From assembly GCA_963766735.1 (NCBI GenBank), contig CAVYBU010000030.1, positions 64,001 through 128,000 of the forward strand: 64,000 bases of DNA, read 5' to 3'. How positions within the stretch are numbered: position 1 is the stretch's first letter; each line of letters starts with the position of its first letter. The notes beneath the pieces are model-generated. The model was not told where the DNA came from and did no database searches. It saw only the letters and a list, made by a program, of their open reading frames with translations. Made by a program: the position numbers and the translations under genes. The stretch is from an uncultured Chloroflexia bacterium. GTDB taxonomy: Bacteria > Chloroflexota > Limnocylindria > Limnocylindrales > CSP1-4. This document shows positions 42,643 to 64,000 of this stretch, piece by piece.

Positions 42643-43905
42643 TCAGCCGGCCCGCTGGTCCAGGACCCGGCGGCCGCCCTTGAGCACCACCGCCGGCCGC
42701 TCCAGCACCGTGATGTCCGCCAGCGGGTCCCCGGCCACCGCCACCAGGTCCGCGTGCCGGCCCGGCGCCAGCGTCCCGACCCGGTCCGCCCAGCCCATGC
42801 ACTCCGCCGCCACGATCGTCGCGGAGCGGATCGCAGCCAACGGAGTCATCCCGAACCGGACGTAGGTCTCGAACTGCCTGGCGACCTCCTCGTGGGGGTA
42901 GACGCCGCTGTCCGTGCTGTACGTGATCCGCACCCCGCGCTCCACCGCCATCCGGAAGGCGGCCACGCCCGTATCCATCGTCTCGGCCAGCTTGCGCATC
43001 GTGTCGGCAGGCCAGTGGTCGGCTTCGCCGTGCTCCAGCGCCCACTCGCCGTCGTACAGGTCGACGCCCAGGAAGGTGCCCGAGTCCGCGATCAGGTCGA
43101 TGGTCTCCGCATCCAGCATCGAGCCGTGCTCCACGGACCGGGCGCCGGCACGGACAGCCCGCCGGGCGCCCCTGGCGCTGTGCGCGTGGACGGCGACGAA
43201 GGTGTCGTAGTGCGCCGCCTCCTTGACCGCAGCGCGCATCTCGCGCTCGGAGAGCTCCGGGGCGCCGGGGACGCCGCCGCGGGTGAGGACCGCGCCTGTT
43301 CCGATGCACTTGATGACGGTGGCGCCGCCGATCAGCAGGCGCCGGACGCGCTCCCGCACCTGCTCGGGGCCACTGACCACACCGAAGCGGAGGTCGTCCG
43401 GGAGAACGATGTCGTGGGCCAGGCCCACCACGTCTCCACCGCCCCAGGGAGCCGTGATGAATGCGCCCGCACACTGCATGCGCGGGCCTTCGATCTCGCC
43501 GGCATCGATGGCATCCCGCACGGCAATGTCGGTGAAGGCACGGAAGGGGCCCAGGTCGCGGACGGTGGTGAAGCCCGCCTGCGCCGTGACGCGCGCATTC
43601 CGAACGCCGAGCATCGCCTCCTGCGCGGCGGAGGTGGTGGTGCCGGGAACGCCGGCCGTCTGCACCTCGCCGACAAGGTGGCCGTGGGTGTCGATGAGCC
43701 CCGGCAGGACGGTGAGGCCGCCCAGGTCGATGACGGGCGTGCCGTCCGGGAGGCCGTCGTCATCCCCGAGGACAGCCTCAATTCGACCGTCGTCGACGAG
43801 CAACGTCCGGTCCGGGGTCGTCCGGCCGGTCTCGACATCCAGCAGCCGGCCGGCGCGGACCGCCAGGCGGCCGCGCGCATCGGCAAAAGGAGCGGCGATC
43901 GTCAT
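42643..43905 (-). CDS. Metal-dependent amidohydrolase (Xaa-Pro dipeptidase-like)
   Basis: PGLIDTHGH, GFTTVRDLG, VAVHAH, SVEHG, STDSG, ADLVAV. Confidence 0.9.
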   Translation of the reverse strand: MTIAAPFADARGRLAVRAGRLLDVETGRTTPDRTLLVDDGRIEAVLGDDDGLPDGTPVIDLGGLTVLPGLIDTHGHLVGEVQTAGVPGTTTSAAQEAMLGVRNARVTAQAGFTTVRDLGPFRAFTDIAVRDAIDAGEIEGPRMQCAGAFITAPWGGGDVVGLAHDIVLPDDLRFGVVSGPEQVRERVRRLLIGGATVIKCIGTGAVLTRGGVPGAPELSEREMRAAVKEAAHYDTFVAVHAHSARGARRAVRAGARSVEHGSMLDAETIDLIADSGTFLGVDLYDGEWALEHGEADHWPADTMRKLAETMDTGVAAFRMAVERGVRITYSTDSGVYPHEEVARQFETYVRFGMTPLAAIRSATIVAAECMGWADRVGTLAPGRHADLVAVAGDPLADITVLERPAVVLKGGRRVLDQRAG

Positions 43906-44129
43906 GATCGAATCGTAGCCCGGCGCCCGCAACGCCGCCCGTCTGGTCAGTGCCCGACGTGGCTGGGCGCAATTCCTAACGAACAGGTAGATCATGCATG
44001 ACGAATGCCTACGGAACCGTGGCCATTGGTGACTTGCGCCAACGATCCGAATAGGCGACGATGGAGTCGTGCAACTAGCAGCCGGCCGCCCGCGGCTGGC
44101 TTGAACCCTCAATTCCCTGGCAGGTAACC

Positions 44130-53182: not shown

Positions 53183-54028
53183 CTAGGTCGCGCCGCCGCT
53201 CTGGTCGCGCAGGAACCGCTCGATCTCGGTGATCAGATCGTCGCCCTCCGGCTGGCGTGACTCGTCCACCATCGCCTCGAGGCGGACCACGTAGGCCTGT
53301 GTCGTCTCGTCGGCGGCCGTGGCCGAGTCCAGCCGCACAAGCAGGGCACGCGCCTCCTCCGACAGGTCGCCACGCGGTAGCTCCAGGTCCAGGTGCCGCT
53401 CGACCGCTCGCAACAGCGCCACCGCGGCCGTGGCGTAGGGCCCGCTGACGTAGTGGGGGATCTGCGCGAAGTACCCGACCGCCGGAATGCCGCCCGCCGC
53501 CGCGGCCATCTCGAGCATCGAGAGCGCCGCCGCAGGCACCTTGAGCAGCCCGGTGGGACCCGCCTCCACCCCGCCGCGCAGCAGGCCGGGGCTCGACTCG
53601 GTTCCGAGGATCGGAACCGATCGCGTGTGGGGGACCGCGGCCGGGATGGCGCCCAGGCTGATCCAGCCACTGACGTCGAGGCGGCCGAGCAGCTCCACGA
53701 TCGCGTCGGCCAGCGCGTGCCAGCGGTCGTCGGGTTCGGAGCCGGTGAGCGTGAGCAGATCGCGTTCGCCGAACCGGGCGTAGCGGAGGACCAGCTCCGG
53801 CCAGGCGAGGGACGCGGGCCGGCCGTCACGGATCTCCAGCGTGGGCCGGCGGGAGCGGTAGTCGAACAGCTGGTCGGGGTCGAAGGTGGCGATGGTCGTC
53901 GCCCGGTGCACCAGCGTGGCGACCGCGCTGGTCGCGGCGGATCCCGCGTCCACCCACCCGTCCATGGCGACGACGACGACGGGATCGTCCAGGGGCGGCA
54001 GCGGGCCTTCGAGTCGATAGAGGGACAT
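53183..54028 (-). CDS. PAC2 (proteasome assembly chaperone-like) family protein
   Basis: GWVDAG.AA, FDYRSRRP, G.EPD.RW, VPHTR, IPHYV. Confidence 0.9.
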   Translation of the reverse strand: MSLYRLEGPLPPLDDPVVVVAMDGWVDAGSAATSAVATLVHRATTIATFDPDQLFDYRSRRPTLEIRDGRPASLAWPELVLRYARFGERDLLTLTGSEPDDRWHALADAIVELLGRLDVSGWISLGAIPAAVPHTRSVPILGTESSPGLLRGGVEAGPTGLLKVPAAALSMLEMAAAAGGIPAVGYFAQIPHYVSGPYATAAVALLRAVERHLDLELPRGDLSEEARALLVRLDSATAADETTQAYVVRLEAMVDESRQPEGDDLITEIERFLRDQSGGAT

Positions 54029-54149
54029 GTGCACAGGATACGGTCCCTGCGTCGCGAGGTCTGGACCGCCTGTCTGCGCCTGTCGGCCGATCCGGGCTAC
54101 TCCCGCGCCATCGCGGTTGGGCGGCGTCGGCCGGGAAGGCTCGTGGCCC

Positions 54150-54809
54150 TCAGGCCCGGCCCCGTTCCCTCCGTTCCGCCCGCACCGAGAGGTAGTGGTG
54201 CCACAGGATCCGGGCGGCGACGGCGCGCCACGGCCGCCATTCCTCGGCCAGCGCCAGCATCTCGCCCGCGGCGGGCCGCCGGTCAAGCCCGCGCACCTCC
54301 GCGATGGCCTGGGCGAGGGCGATATCGTGGATCGGCCACGCGTCCGGTCGCAGCAGCACCATGAGCCTGTAGATGGTCGCGGTCCACGGCCCGATCCCCG
54401 GGACGGCCGTGAGGGCGGCGTCGACCGCGTCGTCATCCATCGCCGGCAACGCGTCCACATCCAGCGATCCATCGAGCATCGCCGCCGCGAGCGCCCGCGA
54501 ATACCTGGCCTTCTGGCGGCTGAACCCGATCGCGAGCAGCTGGGCGTCGTCCAGGTGCAGGAGGCCGGAGGGGGTCAGCGGATGGACGACCGCCTGCAAC
54601 CGCTGGAAGGCGGCCAGCGCCGAGGCGAGTGAGACCTGCTGTTCGAGGACCAGGTGCACGAGCGTCGGGAAGCCCGGCTCGCGGGCCCACATGGGCGGCA
54701 CCCCATAGCGGGCGACGATCCCACCCAGGTCCGGGTCGCGCGTGCTCAGCTCCTCGACCGCGGCCGCGAGCGTGGAGTCCGTGAGACCGGTCGGTGCCCG
54801 GACGCGCAT
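54150..54809 (-). CDS. alkA: DNA-3-methyladenine glycosylase II (AlkA-like)
   Basis: LEQQVSL, GFSRQKARY, VPGIGPWTA, PIHDIA, WRPWR. Confidence 0.88.
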   Translation of the reverse strand: MRVRAPTGLTDSTLAAAVEELSTRDPDLGGIVARYGVPPMWAREPGFPTLVHLVLEQQVSLASALAAFQRLQAVVHPLTPSGLLHLDDAQLLAIGFSRQKARYSRALAAAMLDGSLDVDALPAMDDDAVDAALTAVPGIGPWTATIYRLMVLLRPDAWPIHDIALAQAIAEVRGLDRRPAAGEMLALAEEWRPWRAVAARILWHHYLSVRAERRERGRA

Positions 54810-54845: not shown

Positions 54846-55928
54846 TCAGGAAGCCCTGCCCGCCCCCGACTCCCGTCCGGCCGCGAGGAAGGCGGCGACG
54901 TTGGCCCACGGGATGTCGGGCTCATCGATGTCGTACGCGGGGCAGAGGACGAGACCGGCAGGTCCCAGCGTCTCGATCCGCTCGCGCACCTCGCGCCGGA
55001 TCTCAGCCGGTGACGCGAACGAGAACGTGGTCTGGCGACCGACCGTCCCCCACAGGGCGAGCTGCGGGCCGTAGCGGCGCCGGATCCGGATCGCATCCAT
55101 GTGCTCGGCCTGCAGCGGGTTGATCCCGTTGACGCCGATCTCGACGAGGTCGTCCAGGATCGGCTCGAAATAGCCGTCGCTGTGGTAGATGACGCGCAGT
55201 GCGGGCGCGGTCTCCCGAGCGGCCTCGATGATCTCCGCCAGGCGCGGCCGGAAGAACTCGCGCCAGGTCGCCGGGCCGATCATCATCGTGCCTGGCATGC
55301 CCACGTCGTCGTCGAGGGCAAGGACGTCGATGCCGGCGCCCGCGAGCGCGACGGCGTTGCGCCGTGCGAGCTCGGCGAGGCGGTCCAGCAGGAAGTGCGC
55401 CATCTCCTTCCGTTCGACGAGATCGAGCAGGAACTGCTCAAGCCCCCGCAGGCGCCACGCCGCCTCAAATAGCTCGCCGCCGAGATGGGGCGTGTTGCCA
55501 CCGGCGGCGAGGCCGAGCGCGTGGAGGTCCGCGACCTGGGCGGCGAGCCCGTCCGCGACGTAGGGTCCGTCCACGGCCGGGAACGGGAAGCGTTCGAGAT
55601 CGTCCAGGGAACGCGCAGCCTCCAGCGGGTTGCCGCCCGGCGCCTGCTCCGGGTGGTATCCCCAGCTGGCGTAGCGCGCCGCCTGGGAGACGCTGCCGAT
55701 GCGCGTGTTGCCATCGAAGGGCATCGCCAGGCGCCTCAGCTCCGCTTCCTCCGGCGAAACGGGGAACGCGACGAAGGCAACGTCCACCAGGTCGTCCTGC
55801 CACGCGCCGGGCGGCGCCAGGGCCCGGCCGTCGACCTCGTAGAAGCTGAGGGCGAGCGGGATCCGGTCCGGGATCCGGCCGTCGAGCGCGGCGAGGACCC
55901 GCGCCCTCCCGTCCTCCACGGCCGTCAC
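54846..55928 (-). CDS. Uroporphyrinogen decarboxylase (URO-D) family protein
   Basis: DRIP, FEAAWRLRGLE, DDVG, YHSDG, NPLQ, WGTVG.Q, IPWANV. Confidence 0.87.
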   Translation of the reverse strand: MTAVEDGRARVLAALDGRIPDRIPLALSFYEVDGRALAPPGAWQDDLVDVAFVAFPVSPEEAELRRLAMPFDGNTRIGSVSQAARYASWGYHPEQAPGGNPLEAARSLDDLERFPFPAVDGPYVADGLAAQVADLHALGLAAGGNTPHLGGELFEAAWRLRGLEQFLLDLVERKEMAHFLLDRLAELARRNAVALAGAGIDVLALDDDVGMPGTMMIGPATWREFFRPRLAEIIEAARETAPALRVIYHSDGYFEPILDDLVEIGVNGINPLQAEHMDAIRIRRRYGPQLALWGTVGRQTTFSFASPAEIRREVRERIETLGPAGLVLCPAYDIDEPDIPWANVAAFLAAGRESGAGRAS

Positions 55929-55937
55929 CGACTCGTC

Positions 55938-57377
55938 CTACAGGACCGAGGAGGGACCGTCGATGACGGCGTCCGTGACCATCCGCCTCAGCACTCGCGC
56001 CGTGGCCGAGCGCCGGTATGCGGCCGTCGAGCGAAGGCCATCACGTGGGTGAATGTCCAGGAGGATGGCCTCGGCAGCACGGGCGGCCACGTCGGTGCCC
56101 GGGACCGCACCCTCCAGGACAGCCTCGGCGCTGGGCGCCCGGATCGGCACTTCGGTGATCGTGCCGACCGCGACGCGGACGTCATGCCAGGCCAACGACC
56201 CGGGATCCTGCCGCCACGCCACCGCGAGCGCGACCTTGGCGAGCGCGAGGGCCCGACGGGTGCCGATCTTGCGGTAGCGCAGCTGCCGACCGGCCCCCAG
56301 CGGGAACTCCATCCGGAGCAGCAGCTCGCCCGGCCGGAGCGCCGTCCGCCGGTAGCCGATGAAGAACGACGCCGCCGGGATCTCCCGCTCGCCGTCCGGT
56401 CCGCCGGCGACCAGGACGGCTTCCGCGGCCAGCACCAGCGGCAGGCTGTCGCCCGCCGGCGAGGCGTTCACCACGTTGCCACCCAGGGTCGCCATGTTCT
56501 GGAGCTGTGTTGCCCCGAACGCGGACGCCATCTGCGCCAGCGCCGGGAGGTGGGCCCGGACAAGCTCCGACCCGCGCAGGTCGGCATAGGTTGCCGTCGC
56601 GCCGACCACGAGCCGGTCGCCCTCGATCCTGATCCCGCGGAGCTCCTCGATCCCGGTCAGGTCGAGCAGCGCCTTGTCGGCCGCCGAGGCGTCGCCCGCG
56701 AGCTCGACCATGACGTCGGTTCCGCCGGCGATCGGTCGCCAGGGGCCCGTTGCGAGGAGCGCATACGCGTCGGTGAGCGTCGTCGGGCGCACGAAGACGG
56801 GCCCGGCCCGCACATCCGCCCCGGCTTCCACGTTGGCGCGGACCGCGGCGCCGCCGAGCTCGCCCGACACCTGCGGCAGCCCGCCCGGCACCTCGCGCGG
56901 CGCCATCGTGGCTGCGTTCGCGATCGCGTCGATGATCTTCATGTACCCGGTGCATCGGCAGAGGTTGCCGGCGATCACCTCGCGGATTGCGGCGTCCGTC
57001 GGTTCGGCGCCGGAGTCGAGGAATGCCCGCGCCGACATCAGGATGCCGGGGGTGCAGATGCCGCACTGCACGCCGCCGGAGTCCACGAAGGCAGCCTGGA
57101 TCGGGTCCAGCCGCCCGTCGCTGGCCAGCCCCTCGACCGTGCGGACTTCGCGGCCCTCCACCTGGCCCATCGGGACCAGGCAGCTGACCACCGGGGTCCC
57201 GTCCACCAGGACCGTGCAGGCGCCGCACTCGCCCTCCCCGCAGCCCTCCTTGGTGCCGGTGAGACCGAGCTCGATGCGCAGGGCATCCAGCAGGCGCAGC
57301 CCGCCGGGTCCGGCGACCTCGACCGGGTTGCCATTGACCGTGAAGCGGGTTGTCCGGGCAGGCGCGGCGGTCGTCAT
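55938..57377 (-). CDS. Xanthine dehydrogenase-family fused 2Fe-2S + FAD-binding subunit
   Basis: GCGEGECGAC, QCGICTPG, NLCRCTGY, then AGGTD, ATLGGN..NASPAGD. Confidence 0.92.
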   Translation of the reverse strand: MTTAAPARTTRFTVNGNPVEVAGPGGLRLLDALRIELGLTGTKEGCGEGECGACTVLVDGTPVVSCLVPMGQVEGREVRTVEGLASDGRLDPIQAAFVDSGGVQCGICTPGILMSARAFLDSGAEPTDAAIREVIAGNLCRCTGYMKIIDAIANAATMAPREVPGGLPQVSGELGGAAVRANVEAGADVRAGPVFVRPTTLTDAYALLATGPWRPIAGGTDVMVELAGDASAADKALLDLTGIEELRGIRIEGDRLVVGATATYADLRGSELVRAHLPALAQMASAFGATQLQNMATLGGNVVNASPAGDSLPLVLAAEAVLVAGGPDGEREIPAASFFIGYRRTALRPGELLLRMEFPLGAGRQLRYRKIGTRRALALAKVALAVAWRQDPGSLAWHDVRVAVGTITEVPIRAPSAEAVLEGAVPGTDVAARAAEAILLDIHPRDGLRSTAAYRRSATARVLRRMVTDAVIDGPSSVL

Positions 57378-59688
57378 GACCGGACCTCCTCTGCGTCGCG
57401 GTCGGCCGCGTCGAGCGCCGCGAGGATCCGCTCCGGCGTGGCGGGCAGCTCGTGGATCCAGACGCCGGTCGCGTCGTGGATGGCGGCGACGACCGCCGGC
57501 GCCACGACGTCCATCGGCAGCTCGCCGAGCCCCTTGGCGCCGTGTGGCGCGTCCGAGAAGGGGTTCTCCACCAGGACGGCCGTGATCTTCGGCGCGTCGA
57601 GCGAGGTGGGGATCAGGTACTTCGATAGCCGGTCGTTGAGGAACCGGCCGTCCTTGAGCTTCATCTCCTCGATCGTGGCATAGCCGACCGCCTGGAGCGA
57701 ACCGCCCTCCACCTGGCCGGCGGCCATCAGCGGGTTGATGACCGTGCCGCAATCGTCCGCGGAGACGACGTGCCTCACGGCCACCTCGCCGGTGTCGAGG
57801 TCCACCTCGACCTCGACCGTGGCAGCCGCCCAGGAGAACGCCGGGTAGGCGTCACCGACGTAGGTCGCGTCGTCCCAGGTGATGTCCGGGTAGCCGGTGA
57901 ACTGCTCGTCGAAGCGGAGGGCGCCATGGGTCCGGGCGACGTCGCCGTAGACCGCCGAGAACGGCCCGCGGCGCGTTCCTCGACGGCAGCCCGGAGCCGA
58001 TCGGATGCAAGGGCGAGGAGGCCGCCGACGACCATCGTGCTGCGCGAGGCGACGGTCGGGCCGCTGTTGGGGACGACGGAGGTGTCCTGGCGAACGATGC
58101 CCACGTCCTCGAACGGGATGCCGAGCCGGTCCGCCACGATCTGGGCGAAGACGGTCCGCACTCCCTGACCCATCTCGGTCTGGTTGGAGACGGCGAGGAC
58201 GCGCCCGTCCGCCGTCAGCTCCACCGCGGCGATGCTGGCGAGGTACTTCTCGCCACCGCCCGTGAAGCCGGCTCCATGCCAGCCCATCGCGACCCCGATC
58301 CCGGGCGCGCTGCGCGCCCTGCCGGCCGCGCGGTCGACGGTGCGAGCGGCGGCGAAGGTGCTCCGGCGGGTCTCGAAGTCGCTCGCCTCGAGCGCAGCCG
58401 CCAGGGTCTCCCGGGCCGACACGCTGTCCTTCAGCACCTGCTGGGTCGGGGTCAGGTCCCCGAGCTGGTAGGCCCAGCGCGCCCGCAGCTCCGCCGGCGA
58501 GACGCCGAGCGCATCGGCGATCCGGTTGACCTGCATCTCGGCGGCGAACTCCGTCTGGGGTGCGCCGAAGCCGCGGAAGGCGCCCGTGGGCGGCGTGTGG
58601 GTCTGCACTGCTCGCGCGTGGATGCGCACGTTCGGGCAGGCGTACGGGCCGGCCGAGTGGAGGGTCCCGCGGGAGAGCACCACCGACGAGAGGGTCGCGT
58701 AGGCGCCGCCGTCGAAGGTGATGTCGATGTCCTGGGCGATCAGCCGGCCGTCGCGCGTGACGCCGGTGCGATGGGTGATCACCGCCGGATGGCGCTTCGT
58801 GGTGACCGAGATGTCCTCGTGACGATCGTAGATCAGGCGGACCGGGCGACCGACCGCGAGGGCGAGCATGGCGGCATGGATGGCCAGCCCGGACGGGAAC
58901 TCCTCCTTGCCGCCGAAGGCACCGCCGGTGTCCTCCTGGACGACCACGCACCGCTCGCCGTCGAGGCCGAGGGCCCGCTTCATGGCCGCGTGGACGTAGT
59001 ACGGGCACTGCAGCGAGCCGTGGACCGTGACGCCGCCGTCCGGCCGCGGCACGGCGATCATGCCCTGGGTCTCGATGTAGAGCTGCTCCTGGTGGCCGAC
59101 GCGGTAGGTCCCCTCGATGACCAGGTCCGCCTCGGCGAACCCCGCCTCGAGGTCGCCGCGGGCGATGTTGTACTCGGTGAAGACGTGGTCGGACGCGAGC
59201 ATGTCGGTGACGGCCGGGAGCGGCTCCGTACGAAGCCGGATGTGGTCGCGCGCGGCGTGCGCCAGCGCAAGCGTGGGGGCCGCGACGAGGGCGACCGCCT
59301 CGCCGATGTGGCAGATCTCGTCCACCGCGAGGACCGGCTGGTCGTCCTTCATCAGGTGGATGACGTTCTCGCCCGGCACGTCGGCTGCCGTGAGCACCAC
59401 CACCCGGCTCCAGTCGAAGGCGGGGTCGCGCTCGATCCCGAGCAGGCGGGCATGCGGCTCGGTGGCCCGGACCGTGGCGCCGTGCCATGCCCCGGGTACG
59501 ACGAAGTCGTCGGTGTACCGCGTGGCGCCGAGCAGCTTGGCAACGGCATCCACCCGGGGCACGGACCGCGGGTCGGCTGCGGGATCGCGGATCCAGGTGG
59601 CCGGCGACGCCTCTGGTGGGACCGCCACGGGAGGCGCGGTCAGGACAGGCGTCGCGTGGGGGGTGCGGATCGGCGCCTGCGTCGTCAT
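57374..59688 (-). CDS. Xanthine dehydrogenase-family molybdopterin-binding subunit, frameshifted near 57968
   Basis: GGAFGGKE, FRGFGAPQ, EMGQG, TVASR; C-terminus in another frame with GQVEGG and AKGLGELP. Confidence 0.9.
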
Positions 59689-59693
59689 GGCTG

Positions 59694-60644
59694 CTACTCG
59701 TCCTTCACGATGTGGGTCCCGGCCTTGCCGCGGACCGCGCCCAGGAGGTTCTCCGGGTCCGTGATGATGGCTTCGCGGCCACCCCGCTCCAGGAACCAGA
59801 TGCATGCCTCGATCTTGGGCGCCATGCTGCCCTTTGCGAAGTGCCTGCCCTCGGCAAGATACGTCCTGGCCTCGGACAGCGTCATCCTGTCGATGAACCG
59901 CTGCTCAGGCGTGCCGAAGTCAAGGGCGACCCGGTCCACGGCGGTGGCGATCACCAGGAGGTCGGCCCCGAGATCGCTGGCCAGCAGGGAGCTGGCGAAG
60001 TCCTTGTCGATGACCGCGGGAGTGCCGTGCAGGTTTCCGCCCGCGTCCGCCACGACCGGGATCCCGCCGCCACCAACCGTGATGACGATGAAGCCGGCGC
60101 CAACCAGGGTCCTGACGGCGTTGAGCTCGACGATCCGCATCGGCCTCGGCGAGGCGACCACGCATCGCTTGCCTCGACCGGCATCCTCGACGACCGTCCA
60201 GCCGTCGGCCTGCCGCTTCGCCGCAGTCTCGTCATCGAGGAACGAGCCGATCGGCTTGGTCGGGTTGGCGAACGCCGGGTCGTTCCGGTCCACCTCCACC
60301 TGGGTCACGACGGTGACCGCTTCCTTGTCCAGCCCGAGGCGGGCGAAGTCGTGGCCCAGCGCCTGCTGAAGCTCGTACCCGATTGCGCCCTGCGAGTCGG
60401 CGCCACAGACGTCGAGCGGCACCTCGTGCAGCTCGTGGGCGGCGAGCTCCGAGCGGCGCAGGATGAAGCCGACCTGGGGCCCGTTGCCGTGCCCGATCGC
60501 CATCCGCCAGCCATCCGCGATGAGGGCCGCCAGGTGGTGGCTGGTCTGCTCGAGCGCCGCGATCTGGTCCGGCACCGACTGGTGCTGCTTGTCCTTGATC
60601 AGCGCATTGCCGCCGATCGCGACAACCATGAGGGGACTCGTCAT
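59694..60644 (-). CDS. arcC: Carbamate kinase
   Basis: VAIGGNAL, HGNGPQVG, PTKPIG, VVASP.P, GGGGIPV, VIDKD, GSMAPK. Confidence 0.95.
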   Translation of the reverse strand: MTSPLMVVAIGGNALIKDKQHQSVPDQIAALEQTSHHLAALIADGWRMAIGHGNGPQVGFILRRSELAAHELHEVPLDVCGADSQGAIGYELQQALGHDFARLGLDKEAVTVVTQVEVDRNDPAFANPTKPIGSFLDDETAAKRQADGWTVVEDAGRGKRCVVASPRPMRIVELNAVRTLVGAGFIVITVGGGGIPVVADAGGNLHGTPAVIDKDFASSLLASDLGADLLVIATAVDRVALDFGTPEQRFIDRMTLSEARTYLAEGRHFAKGSMAPKIEACIWFLERGGREAIITDPENLLGAVRGKAGTHIVKDE

Positions 60645-60747
60645 CCCATTCCTCCCCGACCCGTGGGCCGGTTGCAGATACGGTCGATTCCGGGGTTCGG
60701 CCGCGACCCGGACGGGCCACGGCCGAGAGTCAGACGCAGCGTGACTC

Positions 60748-61725
60748 TCAGCGCATCGTGAGCGCCATCACCGCCTTCTGGGCGTGCAGCCGGTTCTCGG
60801 CCTCGTCGTACACGACCGAGTGCGGGCCGTCGATGACGGCGTCCGCGACCTCGATGTTCCGGTCGGCCGGGAGTGGGTGCATATAGATCGCGTCGTCGGC
60901 GGCGAGGGCCATGCGGCGCTCGTCGGTGATCCAGTCCGTGTACTTCCTGCCGATCTCGGCACCCTCCTCGTCGCTCTTCGCGACGAGGAGCGGGCCCCAG
61001 CTCTTGGCGTAGATCACGTCGGAGCCCTTGAAGCCGGCGTCGAAGTCGTCCATCAGCTCGAGGCTGCCGCCCGACGCACGGGCGTTCTCGGCTGCCTGGT
61101 CAACGTACTCCTGGGGCAGCCTGTACTCGGGTGGATGCACCAGGCGCACGTTCATCCCGAAGCGGGTGGTGGCCAGGGTCAGGTCGAGCGGCACGGAGAG
61201 CGGCTTCTGGTAGCTGGCCGCGTACGCCCAGCTGACCGTGATCGTCTTCCCGCGCAGGTCGCTCTTCTTCTCCTTCATCGTCAACAGGTCGGCGAGGATC
61301 TGGTGCGGATGGAAGAGATCGCACTGCATGTTCAACACGGGAACGCGGCTCGCCTGGGCCACGGCGCGCTGGTAGGCGTTGCCCTCGCCCCAGGTGACGT
61401 GGCGGATGGCGATCCCATCGTTGTAGCGGCCCAGGATCTCGCCGATCTCCTTGGGGGTGTCCCCGTGGGCGATCTGCGTCGTCCGGCTCTCGATGAACTG
61501 GGCGTGGCCGCCCAGCTGGGCCATCCCCGCCTCGAACGACGCGCGGGTGCGCGTGCTCGAGAAGAAGAAGAGCATGGCCAGCACCTTGTTATCGAGCAGG
61601 GGGTGCTGGATGCCGAGGGCGCGCTCCATCTTGAGACGGGCGGCGACCTCGAGGATGGAATCGACCTCCTCCCTCGTCCATTCCTGGAGCGAGATGAGGT
61701 CGCGGCCGCGAAGGCCGGTCTGCAT
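60748..61725 (-). CDS. Carbamoyltransferase, YgeW-like (knotted) ornithine carbamoyltransferase family
   Basis: SSTRTRASF, QIAHGDT, NMQCD..HP.Q, SWAYAASYQKPLSVP, YAKSW, HPLPADR. Confidence 0.85.
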   Translation of the reverse strand: MQTGLRGRDLISLQEWTREEVDSILEVAARLKMERALGIQHPLLDNKVLAMLFFFSSTRTRASFEAGMAQLGGHAQFIESRTTQIAHGDTPKEIGEILGRYNDGIAIRHVTWGEGNAYQRAVAQASRVPVLNMQCDLFHPHQILADLLTMKEKKSDLRGKTITVSWAYAASYQKPLSVPLDLTLATTRFGMNVRLVHPPEYRLPQEYVDQAAENARASGGSLELMDDFDAGFKGSDVIYAKSWGPLLVAKSDEEGAEIGRKYTDWITDERRMALAADDAIYMHPLPADRNIEVADAVIDGPHSVVYDEAENRLHAQKAVMALTMR

Positions 61726-61752
61726 GATGCGGACTCCTTCCGGGTGCTCGGG

Positions 61753-62706
61753 CTACTCGGCCGCGCCGAGGATGAGCGTGAGGAGCGACATCTTCAGGGC
61801 GACGCCGTTGAAGGCCTCGGCCCAGTAGCGCTGGTGGCGGGTGGCGTCCACGTCGGGCAGCAGCTCGTCCATGCGCGGCAGGGAGTGCAGGATCATCGAG
61901 CTGCGCTTCGCCTTCTCCTTGAGAAGCTGGCGGGTGATGCAGTACTCCGGCGGCGTGAGGCCCACCTGGTCACCGCGCTCCACCCGCGACGAGGTGTAGT
62001 CGGCCTGGACCACCGGCTCCATGTAGATGACGTCGGCCTCGCCGATCACGTCACGAACGTCGCCCGCTTCGACATAGTCGACGTTCAGTTCGTCGATCTC
62101 GGCCTTGAACTCGGGCAGGAGCGACATGTCGGGCGGGCCGACCACGATCGCCTTGGCGTCGAACTGGCTGAGCGCGTAGAGGATCGAATGCATGGTCCGC
62201 ATGCGCATGTCGCCGACCAGGAGCCAGGTCAGCCCGTCGAGGGTGCCCTTCTCGAGCAGCGTGGTGTAGAGGTCGGTCAGAACCTGGGTCGGGTGCTCAC
62301 CCCAGCCGTCGCCGCAGTTGATGATCGGCACGGAAGACCACTTCGCGGCCTCTGCCGGCGCGCCCTGCTGGAAGTGGCGGATCGCGATCACGTCCGCGTA
62401 GTACTCCAGCATGTGGAAGGTGTCCTTGATCGACTCCTGGTAGAAGTCGCCGGCGCGGGTCATCTTCGAGTCCGCGAAGCCCAGGACGTGCCCGCCAAGG
62501 CGATGCATGGCGGCTTCATGGGACAGGCGCGTCCGGGTGCTGGGCTGGTAGAACGCCGTCAGCAGCGTCTTGTGCTTCAGGAGATCCGTGTTGCGCCGGT
62601 CGCGGGCGAAGGGACGCAGGTCGTCGGCGACCTGGAACACGCGGAAGTACTCATCGCGACTGAAGTCCTTCAGGGACAGGATGTCGCGGCCGGCGAAGCT
62701 CCTCAT
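61753..62706 (-). CDS. Aspartate carbamoyltransferase-like protein with a divergent acceptor site
   Basis: PSTRTRLS, IRH, NCGDG..EHPTQ, HSLPR; AAGGAGG RBS. Confidence 0.85.
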   Translation of the reverse strand: MRSFAGRDILSLKDFSRDEYFRVFQVADDLRPFARDRRNTDLLKHKTLLTAFYQPSTRTRLSHEAAMHRLGGHVLGFADSKMTRAGDFYQESIKDTFHMLEYYADVIAIRHFQQGAPAEAAKWSSVPIINCGDGWGEHPTQVLTDLYTTLLEKGTLDGLTWLLVGDMRMRTMHSILYALSQFDAKAIVVGPPDMSLLPEFKAEIDELNVDYVEAGDVRDVIGEADVIYMEPVVQADYTSSRVERGDQVGLTPPEYCITRQLLKEKAKRSSMILHSLPRMDELLPDVDATRHQRYWAEAFNGVALKMSLLTLILGAAE

Positions 62707-64000
62707 GACCTGGTGTCCTCCTTGGGACTATGACGACGACCATCCGGGTCCGGGGACACCTGGCCGTCCGGTTCTCGCTGGACGCCGCTGAAGACAACGG
62801 CGACCGTTTCGTCTGGATCGAGCGCGCCTGCGCGCGCCAGGTGGAGCAGCCCGGCGAAGCCGGAGGAGCCCGTATGGTCGACAAGGATCCCGGTTGCCGC
62901 GCGGGCGAGGCTGTTGGCCTCTTCCAGCGTCGGCTCGTCGACCACGATAGGCGTTCCTCCCGTCAGGAGCATGCCCCGCACGACGGCCTGCCAATCGTAG
63001 GTCTCGTCGTCCAGTATGCCGTGGGCGATGCTGTGAGGAGCCTCTTCCCACGGCCACATGAATTCGGCGCGGTGGCGTGCCGCATAGGCAAGCGCCGCGT
63101 CCACGCTCTCACCCGCGACCACGCGCGCGGCCACGCGCTCGTGGGCCCGTGCGAGCGGGAAGGCACCCTGGGTCTGCACGGTATCGAAGCGCGGCAGCGG
63201 GATGTCCATCCCGGCAGCGGGGGCGTTCTCGAACCCGGCCATGATCGACGATGCGAAGGCGCCGCCGCCCACCTGGATCACCACGCGGTCGATTCGCTCC
63301 GGCCCGTTCGTCTGGCCCACAGCCGCCGCCATCTCGAGCCCCAGGGTCTCGCCGCCTTCCACCGCGAACGCGTTGAGGTTGCCCTGACAGGTGAACGGTG
63401 CCGCCCCGGCCGCGATCGCGTCCAGGAGGCGCAGGTACGTCGGGTCGCCGGCCACGCCCGGTTGCCGTTCGCAGATCTCCAGCTCGGCGCCCAGGGTGCG
63501 CAGCCGGGTGACGACCGCCTCGTCTGCATCGGGCGGGATGAAGACGAGGAGCCGTCGCTCCGCGGCCCGCGCCACGACCGCAGCCGCGAGTGCCGCGTTG
63601 CCGCAGCTGGCGATCGCCAGCGGTGTGTCGCCCGTCACGGTGCCCGCAACCTCGAGCTCGACCAGCGAACCGAAGAGATGACGGGCCTTGTGCGAACCCG
63701 ACACGTTGCCGGTTTCGTCCTTGACCCACACCCCGCCACGTGCAGAGAAGCCGAGGCGCTCCGACAGCACCGCACTGCGCGCGAATGGCGTCACCCGGAA
63801 GCCGTGGTCGGCCACGCGGGCGACCGCGGCGTCCAGGCGCTCCACCAGGGCGACATATCGCTCGTCCGTCCAGCCCGCGGCCAGGGCCGCATGCCAGGCG
63901 TGGAACAGGCGTCGGTAGGCGACGAACGGATTCTCAGAGGGTGCCGGCGTCATCGGCGAAGCCGCCGGGTCCAGCAGTCGCACCAGGATGTGATCGATGC
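62703..64000 (-). CDS. PLP-dependent fold-type II enzyme (threonine synthase/ammonia-lyase-like), 5' end outside window
   Basis: KDETGNVSGSHKARH (PLP Lys), ASCGNA, QVGGGA, SIAHG; ORF is open to the window edge. Confidence 0.87.
   Translation of the reverse strand, partial: IDHILVRLLDPAASPMTPAPSENPFVAYRRLFHAWHAALAAGWTDERYVALVERLDAAVARVADHGFRVTPFARSAVLSERLGFSARGGVWVKDETGNVSGSHKARHLFGSLVELEVAGTVTGDTPLAIASCGNAALAAAVVARAAERRLLVFIPPDADEAVVTRLRTLGAELEICERQPGVAGDPTYLRLLDAIAAGAAPFTCQGNLNAFAVEGGETLGLEMAAAVGQTNGPERIDRVVIQVGGGAFASSIMAGFENAPAAGMDIPLPRFDTVQTQGAFPLARAHERVAARVVAGESVDAALAYAARHRAEFMWPWEEAPHSIAHGILDDETYDWQAVVRGMLLTGGTPIVVDEPTLEEANSLARAATGILVDHTGSSGFAGLLHLARAGALDPDETVAVVFSGVQREPDGQVSPDPDGRRHSPKEDTRS

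Follow-up and report, generated by a model that had tools for sequence, protein, structure and literature searches.

A second carbamoyltransferase and a pair of fold-II PLP enzymes mark a possible variant of reductive urate degradation in an uncultured Chloroflexia bacterium

The window analysed here is a stretch of 64,000 nucleotides (nt) from an uncultured Chloroflexia bacterium (G000:C30:64001-128000). G-numbers denote genomes, C-numbers contigs and L-numbers fetched loci; G000 is the source genome, a 93.85%-complete assembly of 3.6 Mb in 35 contigs. The last part of the window carries a cluster of genes for xanthine dehydrogenase (XDH) subunits, a carbamate kinase (CK), two carbamoyltransferases and a pyridoxal-phosphate (PLP) enzyme. 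We call the transferase resembling ornithine carbamoyltransferase (OTC) and YgeW CTotc, the one resembling aspartate carbamoyltransferase (ATCase) CTatc, and the fold-II PLP enzymes, of which a second lies beyond the window end, PLP1 and PLP2. With high confidence, we class the locus among purine/urate catabolic clusters of reductive type. We further lean, by a modest degree, towards reading it as a variant of the reductive urate (2,8-dioxopurine) pathway in which two phosphorolytic ureido cleavages feed one carbamate kinase, the PLP pair takes the place of YgeX and the hydantoinase acts in trans.

According to the main texts of two reports from 2025, the reductive pathway converts urate to 2,8-dioxopurine by XdhD or DOPDH, dearomatises it by YgfK or UacX and cleaves a ring by SsnA; these upper steps yield ureidomethyl-hydantoin or 5-ureido-dihydrouracil in E. 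coli and Clostridium. HyuA then opens the hydantoin to 2,3-diureidopropionate, YgeW removes one ureido group as carbamoyl phosphate, from which ATP is formed via YqeA, YgeY hydrolyses the other ureido group, and YgeX turns diaminopropionate into pyruvate (PMC12507026; bioRxiv 10.1101/2025.04.24.650524). A preliminary description of the window had guessed at a diureido intermediate, and the 2,3-diureidopropionate named in the available text of these reports and of a third is just such a compound (PMC12507026; bioRxiv 10.1101/2025.04.24.650524; PMC12990295). According to the available text of the third, the two reports from 2025 disagree over the ureido group that YgeW attacks, and the question is unresolved (PMC12990295).

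The preliminary description also held that the cluster continues past the window end, and it does: PLP2 and a divergent operon lie outside (Table 1). It had pointed to the adjacent DNA as a place to look for hydantoinase, SsnA, YgeY and YgfK; YgfK and a probable SsnA are indeed there, together with a hydroxylase of the TIGR03311 type, and neither hydantoinase nor YgeY is in the cluster. Compared with E. coli K-12, YgfK is 35% identical, SsnA 32%, and the hydroxylase 26% identical to XdhD. The SsnA proteins of YgfK-type loci (G000, G245, G297 and G062) have about 340-362 amino acids (aa), without the usual N-terminal 55 residues, and those of UacX-type loci are full length (455 aa, 438 bits, cut-off 444). 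SelD is present (C8:176131-176943, 300.3 bits) and the selenium-cofactor marker YqeB was not found in the genome, yet the hydroxylase matches the model of a selenium-dependent XDH. As to the oxidative route, neither urate oxidase (TIGR03383) nor hydroxyisourate (HIU) hydrolase (TIGR02962) was found in the 93.85%-complete genome, other uricase types not having been searched.

The lower half of the pathway looks different. Searches of the genome found no YgeY over cut-off (best score 95.9 against 321.5; 29% identity to E. coli YgeY at best, 312 aa) and no diaminopropionate ammonia-lyase (YgeX), the best TIGR01747 score being 32.4 against 274 and E. coli YgeX giving no tblastn match. HyuA hydantoinase is not in the cluster, and the sole genome copy (C17:198691-200052) is a D-hydantoinase/dihydropyrimidinase scoring 581.3 against 393.25 and 42% identical to E. 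coli HyuA. Candidates tried for these absent enzymes were ruled out: an amidohydrolase at window positions 42646-44112, considered as hydantoinase, is Xaa-Pro dipeptidase-like (426.7 bits), and an M20 peptidase in L081, considered as a YgeY substitute, is a PepD-type dipeptidase (464.6 against 343.75). The C17 gene itself is flanked (G000:C17:194000-205000, L150) by genes for a TIGR03842 F420-dependent LLM oxidoreductase (427.8 bits), a CN-hydrolase and an aminotransferase; the region resembles a reductive pyrimidine cluster where an F420 enzyme stands in for dihydropyrimidine dehydrogenase.

What the cluster has in addition is CTatc. Its best PDB match is the P. abyssi ATCase (229.9 bits); among curated ATCase models it lies over the cut-off of TIGR00670, a point weighed below, and under that of NF002032 (209.6 against 263). 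To compare residues, 22 CTatc sequences were placed on the numbering of E. coli PyrB. All 22 retain S52, T53, R54, T55, R56, R105, H134 and Q137, as well as R167; S52-R56, R105, H134 and Q137 are, we take it, the carbamoyl-phosphate site residues of ATCase. In all 22, substitutions have occurred at R229 (to P), Q231 (to V), K83 (to D), K84 (to Y), E50 (to Q) and P266 (to S), and the family has a 9-residue insertion after position 232. The genome's own PyrB retains R229 and Q231. In ATCase, R229, Q231 and K84 presumably bind the aspartate carboxylates, R167 being the alpha-carboxylate arginine, so their loss together with the retention of R167 fits a substrate with one carboxylate, for example a derivative of diaminopropionate. 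The whole pattern fits an altered second-substrate pocket on an ATCase scaffold.

In a quick tree (63 sequences with few outside references, not refined by a completed careful search), CTatc forms its own clade (SH-aLRT 96), apart from E. coli PyrB and the PyrB of its own genome. The latter, PyrB proper, is encoded on C17 between PyrR and PyrC and scores 374.8 against 263; CTatc is without pyr gene context. The preliminary description had named as fatal to its proposal that the cluster transferases be the genome's only PyrB and ArgF; with this separate pyrR-pyrB-pyrC operon and an OTC gene on C7 beside arcA, they are not. Public records give relatives of CTatc the name aspartate carbamoyltransferase and relatives of PLP2 the name cysteine synthase; the homologues listed with these names are close relatives (at least 71% identity), and the organism names on near-identical ones point to Chloroflexota ('Candidatus Limnocylindrales'). 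Both names, aspartate carbamoyltransferase and cysteine synthase, are probably wrong or misleading across a large family.

CTotc remains under the cut-offs of all NCBIfam models considered: N-acetylornithine carbamoyltransferase (AOTC; 253.6 against 288), OTC (TIGR00658; 250.5 against 280.85) and YgeW (NF005538, 187.5 against 453; TIGR03316, 175.3 against 500). Its PDB matches are AOTCase (211 bits), P. furiosus OTC (205), E. coli YgeW (170) and E. coli OTC (133), and its closest E. coli relative is YgeW, at 35% identity. The STRTR motif is kept, the DxxxSMG motif of OTC occurs in none of 23 sequences, and HPLP stands in place of HCLP in all 23; KSW and QCD-x-x-HP motifs are common to CTotc and E. 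coli YgeW. In the same quick tree it groups with YgeW-like genes of other urate clusters, leaving OTC outside (SH-aLRT 96). Given the identity, the common motifs and the tree grouping, the label YgeW-like that the gene had received is a fair one. N-acetyl- and N-succinyl-ornithine transferases act on the omega ureido group of an N-alpha-substituted substrate. By analogy we infer that the YgeW-type enzyme should take the 3- (omega) ureido group, and the ATCase scaffold the 2- (alpha) one.

The preliminary description counted one PLP enzyme; there are two. The PLP lysine and the glycine-rich loops are kept in both, and in PLP1 an invariant Lys within GSHKARH, an invariant HGILDDETYDW and an N-terminal C..C..C..H motif are conserved. 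AlphaFold2 models (pLDDT 86.6 for PLP1, 92.3 for PLP2) have as nearest solved folds threonine synthase, serine racemase and threonine deaminase for PLP1, and cystathionine beta-synthase (CBS), CysK and beta-cyanoalanine synthase for PLP2. No diaminopropionate ammonia-lyase model appears among the family hits of either protein, and the ESM Atlas places both in generic PALP clusters only. Co-folding of PLP1 with PLP2 gave a median of 0.51 against 0.01 for the best control (three runs: 0.60, 0.51 and 0.00), with a contact agreement of at least 0% and a partner pLDDT of at least 83. Of 80 solved complexes 58 pass the mark applied, and of 110 mismatches 2 do so; passes with a score of 0.60 or less comprise only 7 of those 80 and both of the mismatches. 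The modelling thus lends weak support to a pairing, and because fold-II enzymes dimerise, the pass may reflect only that likeness.

Next, we examined conservation of the cluster. The class survey covered 301 genomes, including 12 unpublished ones, none of which was positive for CTatc, hydroxylase or the uroporphyrinogen-decarboxylase-like (URO-D-like) gene discussed below. CTatc occurs in 43 of the 301 (75-99% identity) with a patchy distribution, in 7 of 12 genomes of its own genus and in two of five families. A TIGR03311 hit of at least 720 bits was obtained in 38 genomes, all of them CTatc-positive; five have CTatc only and none the hydroxylase only. One of the five, the single-contig G179, has its hydroxylase in three tblastn pieces (L047, G179:C1, 13072-15744) and a partial YgfK, which suggests indel errors or decay. 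Since related genomes are not independent, we treat this profile as a strong association and not as a statistic.

Gene order tells the same. A neighbourhood without conservation would have spoken against the preliminary proposal, and conserved it is: CTotc, CTatc, PLP1 and PLP2 are adjacent in 10 of 10 relatives, and 29 CTatc loci come from two phyla. The ten relatives' loci contain the hydroxylase in ten cases, SsnA and CK in seven each, XdhAB in four and the URO-D-like gene in one; in four of them, a gene with DHO_dh and 4Fe-4S domains (UacX-like) replaces YgfK after SsnA.

PLP2 reaches much further, with 2440 relatives at E <=0.001 among 1.84 billion representative proteins; in a separate scan, at least 593 species-level genomes of Chloroflexota, Actinomycetota, Acidobacteriota, Gemmatimonadota, Myxococcota, Planctomycetota and Pseudomonadota carry relatives of it. 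We compared 92 loci, namely the best 80 of the at least 593 PLP2 loci (species-representative genomes) and 12 class loci. PLP1 directly follows PLP2 in 68 of these; the hydroxylase is present in 42, SsnA in 44, and CTatc in 29, all Chloroflexota or Actinomycetota. CTatc itself had served to select 12 of these 29, and PLP2 the other 17. The 29 loci contain PLP1 (28 loci), hydroxylase (28), SsnA (25) and CK (19), never a YgeX-like gene, and in 25 of them a second transferase, at least 60% identical to CTotc in 23. Their reductase is YgfK in 6, DHO_dh/UacX-like in 9 and of the luciferase-like F420 type (PF00296) in 11, the same three alternatives (YgfK, UacX-like, F420/luciferase-like) that are given in the main text of PMC12507026. 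Adenine or adenosine deaminases recur in the loci, alongside XdhAB and BMP nucleoside-type transporters.

A further 14 loci, from Acidobacteriota, Gemmatimonadota, Myxococcota, Planctomycetota and others, have the hydroxylase and no CTatc; PLP1 and SsnA are each found in 13 of them. Some of these 14 carry YgeW-like and YgeY-like genes (L075, for instance, with 369.6 against 453 and 182.2 against 321), and L108 has pyrimidine-type PydB/PydC genes. In L146 (Desertimonas flava), L124 and many Acidimicrobiales, the PLP2-PLP1 pair has no hydroxylase, SsnA or transferase gene within 10 kb, so that it is not confined to recognisable purine clusters. A sister system is seen in twelve proteobacterial or Bacteroidota loci (L133, L102, L111 and nine others), where the genes after PLP2 encode a pair of CoA-transferase-like subunits and a luciferase-like oxidoreductase; L133 (Xanthobacter sp. 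VNH20) additionally has a true diaminopropionate ammonia-lyase (505.3 against 276), an M20 peptidase and genes for F420 biosynthesis. PLP1 and CoA-transferase never co-occur in the loci compared.

From these data the following route can be drawn. The XdhAB-like dehydrogenase would convert (hypo)xanthine to urate. With roles taken from the E. coli and Clostridium homologues, hydroxylase, YgfK and SsnA would form 2,8-dioxopurine from urate, remove its aromaticity and cleave the pyrimidine ring, giving ureidomethyl-hydantoin or 5-ureido-dihydrouracil. The dihydropyrimidinase on C17, the genome's single one, might then open the hydantoin or dihydrouracil ring to form 2,3-diureidopropionate. CTotc would phosphorolyse one ureido group, probably the 3-ureido group if it behaves as N-acyl-ornithine transferases do, and CTatc, its aspartate beta-carboxylate site apparently rebuilt, the 2-ureido (alpha) group. 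Judged by the sequences, two phosphorolytic ureido cleavages are plausible. Each would yield carbamoyl phosphate and, through CK, ATP, so that every urate would give two ATP, compared with one in E. coli. Finally, the translationally coupled PLP2 and PLP1 would turn 2,3-diaminopropionate or its mono-ureido form into pyruvate and ammonia, replacing YgeX.

Several observations weigh against this reading. The substrate assignments of all enzymes are inferred from sequence, and CTatc still lies over one curated ATCase cut-off (TIGR00670, 242.2 against 236.95). SsnA is short and, at 258.4 bits, stays under its cut-off (444), the hydroxylase shares no more than 26% identity with E. coli XdhD, and the selenium-cofactor marker YqeB was not found in the 93.85%-complete genome. 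Within the DNA fetched, 4 of the 29 CTatc loci have no second transferase and 10 no CK, so two phosphorolyses are not obligatory for the module. A hydantoinase gene is near only one of the 29 (an in-cluster copy, in G146), which leaves ring opening unaccounted for in cis. The C17 enzyme sits in a pyrimidine-type cluster, and hydantoinase is present in 264 of the 301 class genomes; its co-occurrence with the cluster is therefore uninformative and its recruitment to the urate route a guess. In proteobacterial loci, PLP2 adjoins a bona fide diaminopropionate ammonia-lyase (505.3 against 276), and hence is probably not simply a substitute for YgeX. In addition, phosphorolysis by YgeW gave a small product peak, read in the main text of PMC12507026 as thermodynamically less favourable.

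The rival that deserves most thought keeps the upper steps and changes the lower ones. A transferase would take the exocyclic ureido group of ureidomethyl-hydantoin or 5-ureido-dihydrouracil before ring opening, and a PLP enzyme would open the ring or beta-eliminate urea; a hydantoinase would then be unneeded, and urea, not a second carbamoyl phosphate, may be released. Such a scheme suits the 28 of 29 CTatc loci without hydantoinase and the four without a second transferase. It also suits PLP2-PLP1 lying beside hydroxylase and SsnA in 13 of the 14 CTatc-less loci, several of which lack any transferase, and the nearest folds of PLP2 being aminoacrylate-forming beta-replacement enzymes (CBS, CysK, beta-cyanoalanine synthase). 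However, PLP2 keeps an STGN loop aligned to the substrate-binding loop of CysK; we assume that this loop binds the alpha-carboxylate of the substrate, so its retention favours a free amino acid over a cyclic amide as the substrate. Moreover, a hydantoinase is encoded in or beside the cluster in G146, L071, L072, L083, L091, L108 and L115, and two transferases are present in 25 of the 29 loci. On balance we judge early cleavage unlikely. Somewhat further down we place degradation of another N-heterocycle (another oxopurine, a pteridine, or a pyrimidine such as orotate) by enzymes adapted accordingly. The divergence of SsnA (258.4 against 444, short N-terminus) and of the hydroxylase (26% identity to XdhD) would agree with it, as would the fact that no UacT-type urate transporter was identified, and an ATCase scaffold would suit N-carbamoyl-aspartate from orotate; but CTatc is without the residues holding the aspartate beta-carboxylate, hydroxylase and YgfK score over curated cut-offs of urate-cluster families, and XdhAB, adenine/adenosine deaminases and BMP nucleoside-type transporters recur.

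The remaining explanations take the cluster away from degradation of heterocycles. In a biosynthetic operon, the PLP enzymes would make 2,3-diaminopropionate, and the transferases would carbamoylate it to an albizziin-like ureido amino acid or a natural product. Carbamoyltransferases normally work in the synthetic direction and PLP2 weakly matches CysK and SbnA-type enzymes; yet no conserved SbnB-like partner, nonribosomal peptide synthetase (NRPS) or export genes accompany the loci, the sole NRPS, in G242, being unshared, and co-occurrence with CK and the catabolic hydroxylase-SsnA-reductase genes is strict. This makes a biosynthetic role very improbable. Hardly any weight, finally, falls on the two transferases being conventional enzymes of biosynthesis or of the arginine deiminase pathway (PyrB, ArgF/ArcB) that happen to adjoin purine genes. 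A CK gene next to an OTC-like gene does resemble the arginine deiminase pathway, and both the TIGR00670 score of CTatc and the public names of its relatives would agree. Nevertheless, the aspartate- and ornithine-binding motifs are gone, a pyrR-pyrB-pyrC operon and an arcA-linked OTC exist elsewhere in the genome, all 38 hydroxylase-positive class genomes carry CTatc, and both transferase genes are syntenic in two phyla.

Setting the two-phosphorolysis variant beside these rivals, we still prefer it for the present locus. A broader proposal is put forward more tentatively, as a possibility that we would not back at even odds: PLP2-PLP1 with CTatc may represent an unrecognised lower branch of reductive purine degradation, widespread in free-living bacteria and without in-cluster HyuA, YgeY and YgeX, in which Chloroflexota and Actinomycetota would convert both ureido groups to carbamoyl phosphate and gain two ATP per urate.

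The coordinates of the cluster genes are collected in Table 1. The seven co-oriented genes of the preliminary description, with the families it named, were recovered by open reading frame (ORF) listing and family scans on the minus strand, essentially where it had placed them. Their packing is as tight as it had claimed: 10 nt separate the URO-D-like and FeS-FAD genes, the latter overlaps the Mo-subunit gene by 4 nt, and 6 nt lie between CK and the Mo-subunit gene. CTotc and CTatc are 28 nt apart, with 4-nt overlaps at CTatc/PLP1 and PLP1/PLP2. The first 142 nt of PLP1, including the conserved N-terminal Cys motif, are outside the window. Since the G+C content is high (about 72%), many long spurious ORFs occur, and gene models were fixed from codon-position G+C, homology and start-codon context. 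The 604-aa FeS-FAD ORF, for one, is over-extended; its likely start is the ATG at 57377, behind GAGGAGG, in the 4-nt overlap with the Mo-gene stop. The protein scores 311.2 bits against TIGR02963 (cut-off 467).

Table 1. Genes of the cluster and of the divergent operon. Plain numbers are window positions; bit scores are given against the model cut-off where there is one.
Feature	Position	Strand or operon	Family evidence and remarks
URO-D/MtaA-superfamily protein, 360 aa	54846..55928	-	PF01208, 74.5 bits, residues 161-353 (C-terminal half) only
XDH small subunit, XdhA-like, 479 aa	55938..57377	-	Fer2, Fer2_2, FAD_binding_5, CO_deh_flav_C (Pfam); two [2Fe-2S] domains and FAD domain
XDH molybdopterin subunit, ~771 aa	57374..59688	-	Ald_Xan_dh_C, MoCoBD_1, MoCoBD_2 (Pfam); 1-nt gap at 57967/57968
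Carbamate kinase, 316 aa	59694..60644	-	TIGR00746, 361.5 vs 358.25; NF009007, 393.7 vs 266 (both passed)
CTotc, YgeW-related carbamoyltransferase, 325 aa	60748..61725	-	OTC/AOTC/YgeW models
CTatc, ATCase-derived carbamoyltransferase, 317 aa	61753..62706	-	TIGR00670, 242.2 vs 236.95
PLP1, threonine-synthase/serine-racemase-like fold-II enzyme, 479 aa	62703..64000 in window, start ~64142	-	PF00291, 116.1 bits
PLP2, CysK/CBS-like, 499 aa	beyond window end	same operon as PLP1	stop overlaps PLP1 start as ATGA
Fused FeS+Mo hydroxylase ('selenium-dependent XDH')	L002:2900-5560	divergent operon	TIGR03311, 952.9 vs 830.45 (passed)
SsnA	L002:5627-6649 (C30:132627-133649)	divergent operon	best family for the ORF, 258.4 bits vs 444; short N-terminus
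YgfK	after SsnA	divergent operon	TIGR03315, 873.3 vs 835.3 (passed)
LysR regulator, then BMP/PnrA-type ABC transporter	downstream of YgfK		family matches

The whole locus spans about 24 kb (G000:C30, about 118849-143257), bordered by an HhH-GPD glycosylase gene on the left and a nitroreductase gene on the right. The glycosylase ORF (54153-54809, minus strand) has good coding statistics and overlaps an over-long 429-aa PAC2 ORF call (53183-54472), so the PAC2 gene probably starts later than called. The carbamate kinase is 50% identical to E. coli YqeA and gave a single tblastn match in the genome; as the only CK found there, with an OTC gene beside arginine deiminase on C7, it may serve both pathways.

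The molybdopterin subunit gene is broken at 57967/57968, the C-terminal 192 aa lying in another frame. At this point the nearest relative, G245 (94% identical), has one base more, and so have public metagenome contigs from 4 of 4 runs; two of these contigs, though of low depth, match the window at every other base across 296 and 150 nt. Relatives have the gene in a single frame. The gap is therefore most likely an assembly indel, and given the extra base in G245 and in all four runs we rejected a pseudogene. The genome's OTC gene (G000:C7:433413-434394; L149:4613-5407 and downstream), which adjoins the arginine deiminase gene, is frameshifted too, again indicating assembly indels.

The preliminary description had counted the URO-D-like gene as part of the cluster, but the gene does not belong to the conserved module. 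The protein scores 44-49 bits with MtaA models (cut-offs 235-400), its best PDB match is MtaA 4ay7 (37.5 bits), and it has H-S-D at the position of the H-x-C of MtaA, which we take to be the zinc motif. Orthologues occur in 7 of the 301 class genomes, all of the same genus, next to the cluster in G000, G245, G062, G188 and L069 and on another contig in G295; G098 and G272 have the gene without CTatc. Found at 4 of 29 CTatc loci and also in genomes lacking the transferase, it was rejected as a core member and is a lineage-specific accessory or passenger.

If the broader proposal is true, the lower branch needs an ATCase scaffold with a new activity, phosphorolysis of an alpha-ureido group, and also one or more new reactions by fold-II PLP enzymes. 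The pathway was worked out in gut bacteria; with a lower half of different construction in lineages that abound in soil and sediment, it would be an environmental nitrogen and energy route as well. For the engineering of uricolytic strains, a yield of two substrate-level phosphorylations per urate would be of interest. Having a YgeW relative and an enzyme with an alpha-amino-specific ATCase scaffold in one locus also makes the disagreement over the ureido group, as it appears in the available text of PMC12990295, testable.

The main texts of PMC12507026 and bioRxiv 10.1101/2025.04.24.650524 mention neither an ATCase-like transferase nor PLP1/PLP2, though Figure 3 or the supplementary tables might show variants; outside the supplements of the pathway papers, our literature searches turned up no account of a variant with two transferases or with PLP2/PLP1. 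Like the loci of E. coli (xdhD-ygfM, ygfK, ssnA, hyuA, ygeW, yqeA, ygeY, ygeX) and Clostridium sporogenes, the present one unites a Mo hydroxylase, YgfK, a probable SsnA, a YgeW relative and CK, has XDH and purine transport genes, and appears to share the logic of passing a ureido group to ATP by way of carbamoyl phosphate. Unlike them, it is without HyuA, YgeY and YgeX and carries one more transferase, derived from ATCase, along with a pair of novel fold-II PLP enzymes. Its hydroxylase is of the clostridial TIGR03311 type, in contrast to E. coli XdhD (26%), and its host is a free-living member of the Chloroflexota, not a gut organism. With Clostridioides difficile (UacX for YgfK) and the Chloroflexota F420/luciferase-like variant, as given in the main text of PMC12507026, the sister two-transferase loci share an interchangeable reductase. 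In its lower half C. difficile, with the UacY hydrolase for YgeW/YqeA, is fully hydrolytic and forms no carbamoyl phosphate according to the same text (PMC12507026), whereas the opposite, two transferases, is found here.

The single enzymes can be compared in the same way. With PyrB, CTatc has in common the fold, the carbamoyl-phosphate site (STRTR, R105, HPTQ) and R167; it differs by the loss of R229, Q231, K83, K84 and E50, by the 9-residue insertion and by its separate clade. Among the knotted transcarbamylases (YgeW, N-acetyl- and N-succinyl-ornithine carbamoyltransferases), CTotc matches AOTCase, then OTC and YgeW. Compared with YgeW it is about 70 residues shorter, scores 187.5 against 453 and has HPLP, not HCLP. 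The arginine deiminase pathway, likewise, couples phosphorolysis of a ureido group to ATP through CK, but with another substrate and other transferases, and the arcA-OTC pair of this genome lies on another contig.

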